Of a DNA stretch of 64,000 nucleotides, positions 34,142 to 34,885 are shown in pieces. Source of the stretch: Candidatus Babeliales bacterium. Lineage in GTDB: Bacteria > Babelota > Babeliae > Babelales > RVW-14. Where the stretch lies: contig JBAZHB010000001.1 in assembly GCA_041652535.1 (NCBI GenBank), positions 2,870 to 66,869 of the forward strand, in the 5' to 3' direction. Position 1 is the first letter of the stretch. Each line of letters begins with the position of its first letter. The position numbers and the translations under genes were made by a program. The notes beneath the pieces were generated by a model. It saw only the letters and a list, made by a program, of their open reading frames with translations. It was not told where the DNA came from and searched no databases.

Positions 34142-34885
34142 CAAGTAGAGCCAGGTGCCGACGAGGAAAAGACGGTAGAAAGAGTAGAAGAAAAAAAGGG
34201 TGGCGTTGTTGTTAGGGTTATTCCAATCACAGCGCAAAATTTTGAAGAAAACAGGCTTCTGCTTGCCGAATTAGGCCCTGTTTATGCAGCAGCATTTTTT
34301 GAAGAAGAAAAAAAAATCTTGATTAAAGCTGGTACTTTTGAAGAAGGCTTTGATATTGCTAAGTTCTTAGAAGAAGAGTGGCAAAAGGATATAAAAAAAC
34401 TCGAAAAAAACTTAAAGGGTAAATATCCTGAAGATTGTATTTTTGTTACTGTTTCCACCGAACACGACGAACTGATTGGATTCGCAAAAATATATTTAAG
34501 ATCGCAAGATGAATTTATTCGCATCTTAGCTGACGAAGACGGTGGAGAGAATATAACTATAGCGCCAATAGCCCAAGCATTACGTGACGGACTTGATGCG
34601 TATATTGAATGTATTGAAATAAAACCAGAACATGCACACAAAGGCTTCGGTACGTTACTGATGAATACAATCCAGATGCTTCCACGTATCAGATTGATAT
34701 ATTTTGAGGTATTTGTTGATAATGGCTCGGCCATCAATTTTTATACAAAATTAGGTTTTATGCAACAAGGTAGTTATTTACATGGCGGTGTGAATTACTA
34801 CATTTGTTCAAAAATTATACGAGGAGGACTTCGTCCTTCATTCAAACCTTATCACCCAAAAAGAAAACGCAAACTGTCTTTTTGA
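34079..34885 (+). CDS. Signal-peptide-bearing GNAT family N-acetyltransferase (paralog 3 of 3) with a basic C-terminal tail
   Basis: Identical signal peptide MKIFRLLSLLSLVFFSTCAA. Motif A IEIKPEHAHKGFGTLLMNTI, plus GSAINFYTKLGFMQQG. The C-terminus is ...HPKRKRKLSF. Confidence 0.8.
   Translation: MKIFRLLSLLSLVFFSTCAAMQVEPGADEEKTVERVEEKKGGVVVRVIPITAQNFEENRLLLAELGPVYAAAFFEEEKKILIKAGTFEEGFDIAKFLEEEWQKDIKKLEKNLKGKYPEDCIFVTVSTEHDELIGFAKIYLRSQDEFIRILADEDGGENITIAPIAQALRDGLDAYIECIEIKPEHAHKGFGTLLMNTIQMLPRIRLIYFEVFVDNGSAINFYTKLGFMQQGSYLHGGVNYYICSKIIRGGLRPSFKPYHPKRKRKLSF

Follow-up and report, generated by a model that had tools for sequence, protein, structure and literature searches.

Several exported, eukaryote-like proteins of a Candidatus Babeliales bacterium carry short basic motifs that may direct them to the nucleus of a host cell. 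We identified these motifs in a 64,000-nt stretch of the genome (the window; GenBank assembly GCA_041652535.1, contig JBAZHB010000001.1, corresponding to G000:C1:2870-66869 in the source assembly, G000). They occur on two of three GNAT-family acetyltransferases encoded in tandem (GNAT1 and GNAT3) and on a HECT-like protein whose gene crosses the left edge of the window. Babeliales/Dependentiae are widespread parasites that multiply inside protists, and to our knowledge no Dependentiae effector has been characterised so far. In the reading that we consider best, and hold tentatively, a subset of Sec-exported eukaryote-like proteins is released from the bacterium and then read by importin-alpha via the basic motif. 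Overall, targeting of the host nucleus by these exported proteins appears plausible and is unproven. A cultivated relative dwells in the host cytoplasm and exports eukaryote-like proteins in number via Sec, with signal peptides on 44% of its coding sequences and on 78% of its ankyrin proteins (PMC6561590). We found no publication on nuclear targeting in Dependentiae in the literature searched.

The motif with the clearest record of retention lies in the leader of the left-edge gene (...AAQQPH-KR-KEEAVDEPSS-KKPR-EEEKEE). The initial annotation had placed bipartite-type motifs just after the signal peptide of this gene (KR-x10-KKPR) and of GNAT1 (KR-x12-KKPR), and both the motifs and their positions hold up. 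Both sequences fit the bipartite classical nuclear localization signal (cNLS) consensus KRX10-12K(K/R)X(K/R), as quoted in PMC3812174, and each follows a signal peptide (here and throughout, called from the sequence and a crude hydropathy rule). We identified relatives of the left-edge gene in G003, the closest same-genus genome compared (examined whole; 893 kb, 79% complete), in G001 (a tandem pair of copies), and in metagenome protein P0154. QQP(x)HK(R/K) and (K/R)(K/R)P(K/R) are present in each of them. Counted over five relatives, none has lost either basic cluster. The amino acids of the leader motif are thus retained in every relative found, and its codons differ synonymously between genomes (CCA CAT AAG CGA AAA vs CCG CAT AAG CGT AAG). 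Compared with P0154, residues 28-65 are 74% identical and the whole protein 43%, which ranks this segment 23rd of 895 along the protein; the leader lies within the top 3.4% of this fast-evolving protein. The G003 copy (L013, G003:C139, 1450-4356) is split by an in-frame stop, and one of the two tandem G001 copies (L016, G001:C18) has a long D/E-rich insert after the leader.

A Babeliales/Dependentiae placement of G000 agrees with the small size of its relatives' genomes, the many exported ankyrin proteins, the nearby operon with two secretins, and a PNPase comparison in which a 'Candidatus Babeliales bacterium' came second among the named hits, at 49%. Core proteins of G000 and G003 are ~90% identical (median of 553 reciprocal best hits), compared with a median of 82% for signal-peptide-like proteins and 39-62% for effector-like ones. 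The exported set changes at a far higher rate than the core.

The left-edge protein is HECT-like on the evidence of its sequence. Pfam HECT (PF00632) scores it and three relatives at 20.1-22.4 bits, below the cut-off of 23.9, all with E <=0.05. The protein contains an '..AHTCY..' motif in which T-C is invariant in four sequences; the Cys is residue 862 of 932, 70 from the end. In HECT enzymes the catalytic Cys is usually 30-odd residues from the C-terminus. PDB sequence and profile searches with the left-edge protein gave no match, and the AlphaFold2 (AF2) model, built from a two-sequence alignment, had a predicted local distance difference test (pLDDT) score of 41, too low to use for the HECT fold.

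The leader of the HECT-like gene is shared with GNAT1 (...AAQQPQQH-KR-KMKQEAEEESIS-KKPR-EEEKEE) as one DNA cassette (Table 1). The motif codons of the two genes are identical, and the proteins encoded downstream are unrelated. Among 31 genomes scanned, the pattern KKPREEEKEE matched in GNAT1 and the left-edge gene only. Because both bipartite motifs lie within one shared cassette, they represent one event and are not independent. Given the identical codons, the GNAT1 motif is a recent copy of the ligase-gene leader, which weighs against counting it as separate evidence for nuclear targeting. GNAT2 and GNAT3 share a second cassette, and their protein bodies are 40-45% identical, depending on the alignment. 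Together, these two cases of sharing indicate that leader cassettes move between genes in G000.

We also observed that signal peptides ending in Gly or Ala are followed directly by Met in 51 of 313 signal-peptide-like proteins of G000, vs 76 of 1213 other proteins. Examples of the [G/A]↓Met junction are ...CAA↓MKVE, ...GIA↓MQAN, and ...LFG↓MKRK (e.g., window 34139-34141 and 33431-33433). Cleavage there would leave mature proteins starting with Met. The cassette common to GNAT2 and GNAT3 ends at that ATG, as though leaders had been grafted onto complete genes. A lipoprotein reading of 'FGC↓SQ' in the leader shared by GNAT1 and the left-edge gene was ruled out, as the Cys is absent from both G001 copies.

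The three GNAT genes lie head to tail at 32538-34885, with gaps of 26 and 9 nt. All three proteins match Pfam Acetyltransf_1 (PF00583) at 46-50 bits (GNAT3, 46 bits) against a cut-off of 20.7, and each begins with K/R and a hydrophobic core of 11-13 residues, signal-peptide-like by the crude rule. In the AF2 model of GNAT3, pLDDT is >90 in the core and <50 in the N-terminal linker and the tail. Foldseek with GNAT3 gives a probability of 1.0 to many GNAT structures, which identifies the GNAT alpha/beta fold. Acetyl-CoA motif A (Q/R-x-x-G-x-G/A) is kept as x-H-K-G-x-G, with Q/R replaced by A or N. Residues G191, F221, Y222, and F227 are invariant in 19 aligned GNAT-family sequences; among them is the Tyr that GNATs conserve in the FY..LGF block. 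The acetyl-CoA that an exported GNAT requires exists only within cells; for an exported enzyme this means the inside of a host cell, so a host target is favoured.

The initial annotation had also suggested a histone or chromatin acetyltransferase, for which we found no specific support: sequence and fold searches give generic GNATs only. The best PDB matches of the window GNATs are PaiA (1tiq, the top match), Naa50/60, NatD, SpeG, and RimI, and in PDB sequence searches the acetyl-CoA half alone aligns. NatD, a histone H4/H2A N-terminal acetyltransferase, and Naa60 match in fold no better than polyamine and other acetyltransferases do, and assignment of a substrate class was dropped.

GNAT3 carries a motif of another type at its C-terminus (...IIRGGLRPSFKPYHPKRKRKLSF, followed by the stop). 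The PKRKRKL core had been called monopartite-NLS-like, and this was confirmed: the codons are exact, KRKR conforms to the consensus for monopartite signals (KR[K/R]R or K[K/R]RK; quoted in PMC9645283), and residues 250-268, after the last strand, have a pLDDT <50. In CHD4, a KRKR motif is a working NLS (PMC10112965). The core is part of a 20-residue extension (GGLRPSFKPYHPKRKRKLSF). In an alignment of GNAT2 '...CGA TAA GGA TTA' with GNAT3 '...CGA GGA GGA CTT', the GNAT2 stop codon corresponds to GGA in GNAT3, which suggests that the tail arose by stop loss. We do not claim a proline-tyrosine (PY)-NLS reading of 'R-PSFK-PY' in the tail, which fits just the loose R-x2-5-PY half of the rule.

Table 1. 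Coordinates of the features discussed (window positions unless a contig is given)
Feature	Coordinates	Strand	Remarks
Left-edge gene	2..367	-	N-terminal 122 aa of a 932-aa exported HECT-like protein; full gene G000:C1:438-3236
Bipartite cNLS-like motif of left-edge gene, KR-x10-KKPR	227..274	-	kept in relatives
Exported ankyrin protein a	11342..12169	-	PPTKRQRLS just after signal peptide; KRQR at 12047-12058
Cassette shared by GNAT1 and left-edge gene	32440..32705	+	promoter-like site, signal peptide, basic/acidic leader; DNA alignment to window 195-470 (minus); approximate boundaries
Promoter-like site TTGAAA-16-TAAAAT	32448-32475	+	promoter scan; upstream of GNAT operon
GNAT1 (paralog 1)	32538..33344	+	268 aa from ATG; ORF, Pfam; leader common to left-edge gene
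Bipartite cNLS-like motif of GNAT1 (K34..R51), KR-x12-KKPR	32637..32690	+	fits KRX10-12K(K/R)X(K/R)
GNAT2 (paralog 2)	33371..34069	+	232 aa; no NLS-like motif at N- or C-terminus; ORF, Pfam
GNAT3 ribosome-site and signal-peptide cassette	34068..34141	+	~97% DNA identity to 33360-33433 of GNAT2; ends exactly at in-frame ATG
GNAT3 (paralog 3)	34079..34885	+	268 aa: signal peptide, acidic linker, GNAT core, basic tail
GNAT3 C-terminal extension	34823..34882	+	20 residues; found in no other paralog; predicted disordered
Monopartite cNLS-like core PKRKRKL	34856..34876	+	CCA AAA AGA AAA CGC AAA CTG; KRKR fits KR[K/R]R
Bidirectional terminator-like hairpin	35160..35203	both	end of GNAT operon
RING-like tandem paralog pair	G000:C9:18539-20260		KKRKQPEP near N-terminus; C-terminal Cys/His cluster LKCGH.FH...C..CG

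Comparison with orthologs, proposed with the initial annotation as a check, came out differently for the two kinds of gene: the left-edge gene keeps both basic clusters, and ~28 GNAT homologs lack the motifs. An exhaustive hidden Markov model (HMM) search of 1.8 billion representatives recovered three close GNAT homologs (P0004-6, E 1e-30 to 1e-38) and a wider family of proteins of 230-270 aa that begin with a signal peptide or anchor. Word-indexed searches of proteins, whether started from GNAT3 or from the 19-sequence family profile, returned almost nothing beyond the window's own proteins, and a scan of genome contigs with the GNAT paralog alignment gave no match. P0004-6 and ~25 more distant homologs end ...IYSK(V)xQ, are tailless, and have acidic or neutral linkers. 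In a fusion protein (G000:C5:23393-24832, minus strand), an N-terminal LicD/nucleotidyltransferase-like region precedes a GNAT of this exported family; the arrangement, also seen in P0015 and P0106, recurs in several relatives.

These homologs bear on the main rival explanation, chance combined with hitch-hiking, which we consider possible and somewhat unlikely. It holds that the GNAT3 tail is neutral read-through, that the GNAT1 motif was copied along with its leader, and that the GNAT motifs have no function of their own. Several observations weigh on its side and against nuclear targeting by the GNATs. In the 16 outside family members that were aligned, and in 12 others inspected, the protein stops directly after the last strand and the GNAT1 insertion is missing. 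The GNAT3 tail is absent from 18 aligned family members and 12 more inspected, making it unique among ~30, and the GNAT trio was not found in the three same-genus genomes searched, including G003. Stop loss in this composition would be expected to add ~14 codons (mean), not far from the 20 of GNAT3, and the codons after the aligned stop position are similar in GNAT2 and GNAT3 (GGA TTA vs GGA CTT). The identical motif codons of GNAT1 and the ligase gene are likewise as expected from copying. Against chance, a run of five basic residues would arise in a random extension of 20 codons of this composition with a probability of ~3e-4, an estimate made post hoc, and the copied leader is itself constrained in the ligase lineage. 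In addition, the metagenome protein P0029, a distant member of the exported-GNAT family, has its own short C-terminal extension (...AKILGNSKRKV), which may be a second, independent basic tail.

The setting of the trio also agrees with the chance explanation. GC content of the GNAT cluster is 34%, vs ~41%, and the cluster looks like part of a variable low-GC island, possibly of effector genes. Between a LOG-family gene and small exported secretin-side genes, window 31549-35224 differs in content from G003 (C129, L250, and C90, L211). This interval holds a PHD/RING-like membrane protein and the GNAT trio in G000. In G003 it is broken between contigs, with a 541-aa exported protein at one contig end and a MerR-type regulator at the other.

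Motif frequencies, too, are those expected by chance. Genome-wide gene calls were crude open reading frames (ORFs; n=1526, a crude heuristic) from the 1.69-Mb assembly (175 contigs, GC 42%). Contamination of the bin is 3.4%, and foreign contigs in it probably blur the proteome statistics slightly. We scanned for three motif classes: KR[KR]R or K[KR]RK (monopartite), the bipartite consensus, and [KR]{5}. The monopartite class was present in 17 of 1526 ORFs vs 20.9 in composition shuffles, the bipartite class in 10 vs 8.6, and [KR]{5} in 6 vs 10.1. PSORT-type motifs occur within the 45 residues after the signal peptide in 5.4% of signal-peptide proteins, vs 5.0% of other proteins (Fisher p=0.77). 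The composition of G000 shows no marked excess of Lys (K 6.6%, R 4.6%). In a survey of ordinary bacterial genomes, predictors marked 100-200 proteins as 'cNLS' carriers (PMC13311002). The motifs are rare but no commoner than composition predicts, and their presence alone is weak evidence. With no enrichment proteome-wide or after signal peptides, we dropped motif counts as support for targeting.

Similar clusters were identified in other exported eukaryote-like proteins. Ankyrin protein a (KRQR) has the counterpart AKRQKLS in G003 and a paralog with SAKRRKVE, and ankyrin proteins b and c carry MKRKAPC and PQKKRKAPC after the signal peptide. An obvious signal peptide was called on only one member of the RING-like pair. 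The G003 counterparts, at 55-62% protein identity, keep KKRKQP (RING-like), KRQKLS (ankyrin a), and MKRKAP (ankyrin b) with synonymous changes. Hypergeometric tests of motif versus flank, on families chosen starting from motifs seen in G000, gave p = 0.029, 0.46, 0.22, and 0.0078 (combined ~0.006). An unbiased pass over 54 fast-evolving signal-peptide ortholog pairs found basic clusters kept in 7/11 cases vs 3/12 for acidic clusters. The raw count for basic clusters was 5/11; it became 7/11 after the HECT-like gene, whose G003 copy is split, was re-paired by hand, and 8/12 with the RING-like pair. This difference is suggestive, not decisive. Weighing on the other side, the retention test is weak (two-sided p ~0.1; raw 5/11 vs 3/12, p=0.4), the cluster is lost from the RING-like and ankyrin-a families in the more distant G001 relatives, and just ~4 of 22 ankyrin proteins have such a cluster.

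The constraint on the ligase leader could have another cause. The leader may serve bacterial export, as a recognition element or spacer for a two-secretin machine or as a pro-peptide, or it may dock to some other host target, with no nuclear import; we judge this improbable. As this explanation would have it, conservation extends over all 38 residues of the leader, the acidic block EEKTDADREEKE as well as the basic clusters, and the cassette moves with its promoter and signal peptide. The spacer between the clusters also strays outside 10-12: it is 12 in GNAT1, 10 in the G000 left-edge gene, and 11 in G001 copy A, and 9 in G003, 9 in P0154, and 13 in G001 copy B, so that three of six copies obey the strict rule. 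Both the conserved acidic block and the spacer lengths weigh against the nuclear-import reading. No Dependentiae secretion signals are known as yet. However, the cluster is missing from most exported ankyrin proteins, which excludes a general secretion signal. What the RING-like and ankyrin families have in common is the short basic cluster alone, set in linkers that otherwise differ. Furthermore, in Escherichia coli basic residues early in the mature region usually hinder Sec export rather than help it.

Polybasic stretches can also bind acidic lipids or nucleic acids, and the KRKRK-LSF end of GNAT3 might tether the protein to a host membrane or to bacterial or host RNA/DNA. Polybasic tails are common membrane-targeting devices, and the terminal basic run of GNAT3 is followed by hydrophobic L and F. 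However, a lipidation motif and an amphipathic helix are absent, and the N-terminal clusters sit in net-acidic linkers, a poor fit to membrane binding; we think this explanation decidedly improbable. It is highly improbable that the GNATs stay in the periplasm or envelope with a bacterial substrate, the basic motifs being irrelevant to the host: in many members of the wider family the N-terminus does look like an uncleaved anchor and not like a clear signal peptide, but acetyl-CoA is not known to be present in the periplasm, and in GNAT2 and GNAT3 the hydrophobic core is short (~12 residues) and is accompanied by a C-A-A site of the cleavage type.

Under the nuclear-import reading that we prefer, a subset of Sec-exported proteins with eukaryote-type domains would carry the short basic motif K-K/R-x-K/R, single or paired. 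The candidate carriers are the HECT-like ligase, the RING-like protein, two ankyrin proteins, and GNAT1 (via the copied leader). The motif would act from a disordered, net-acidic linker, 0-25 residues past the predicted signal-peptide cleavage site. These proteins would cross the inner membrane via Sec and probably leave the cell through the neighbouring two-secretin machine; the operon with the two secretins lies 3 kb away. Import into the nucleus would follow once importin-alpha in the host cytoplasm bound the basic motif. There the ligase-like protein and the acetyltransferase would act on host nuclear proteins with ubiquitin and acetyl-CoA drawn from the host. GNAT1 would have obtained its address by recombination, when the ligase gene's promoter, signal peptide, and leader were copied to it. 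GNAT3 would have acquired its separate C-terminal basic tail, probably by loss of the stop codon; this tail may function as an NLS already but need not. A bolder version is that Dependentiae have a portable 'address label', in which promoter, Sec signal peptide, and importin-type NLS form one recombining cassette that is grafted onto unrelated enzymes, here from a HECT-like ligase onto a GNAT, and would dispatch them from the bacterium to the host nucleus; this seems to us unlikely.

Bacterial nucleomodulins with a classical NLS, a concept of Bierne and Cossart, include M. tuberculosis Rv1988 and Rv2966c and Klebsiella HsdM (PMC13295639, PMC10117894). The initial annotation had seen the profile of a nucleomodulin in the GNATs. 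This stands to the extent that the proteins are candidates, with a stronger case for the ligase leader; the case is weak for the GNAT3 tail, and the GNAT homologs lack the motifs. Like nucleomodulins, the candidates would be secreted bacterial enzymes with a short K/R cluster for the host import machinery, and their candidate activities, acetyl and ubiquitin transfer, are chromatin-type modifications. Unlike nucleomodulins, the proteins here are candidates predicted from sequence, their delivery would be by Sec and a two-secretin machine, and the motif directly follows the signal peptide.

Secreted GNAT effectors are also known: M. tuberculosis Eis acetylates histone H3 (PMC13295639), and Brucella BspF, a type IV secretion system effector, acts on p53 (PMC10534853). 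As in those cases, the window GNATs are predicted to be GNAT-fold enzymes exported by an intracellular bacterium that would use host acyl-CoA on host proteins. However, they have no specific sequence relationship to Eis or BspF; their database matches cover just the generic acetyl-CoA core, and the Dependentiae-type family to which they belong has an N-terminal half of its own (an '..EIT.QN..' block). The order of signal peptide, short cNLS linker, and effector domain resembles that of fungal nuclear effectors such as MoHTR1 and MoHTR2 (reviewed in PMC9645283). Those are eukaryotic secretory proteins, whereas the producer here is a bacterium inside the host cell.

Another parallel is offered by the leader cassettes that host-dependent bacteria shuffle (Erp/Elp-type leaders in Borrelia), with near-identical ribosome-site and signal-peptide DNA ahead of bodies that are far more diverged or unrelated. 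Unlike in Borrelia, one cassette here adds a promoter and ~40 mature residues that include the NLS-like motif, and it joins two unrelated enzymes, the HECT-like protein and a GNAT.

The outcome is a short, testable list of exported candidates with import-like motifs: the HECT-like leader, the RING-like KKRKQP, two ankyrin proteins, and the GNATs. If the motifs do not drive nuclear import, they are a reminder that NLS-like patterns turn up in bacterial proteomes as often as chance predicts. The leader common to two unrelated enzymes could show how such addressing spreads between genes. Nuclear effectors as a kind are already known; these would belong to that kind, in a phylum without a characterised effector. 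If the address-label version is true, a whole set of exported ligase, RING, ankyrin, and acetyltransferase proteins would serve as nuclear effectors in a phylum without injection systems of types III, IV, and VI.

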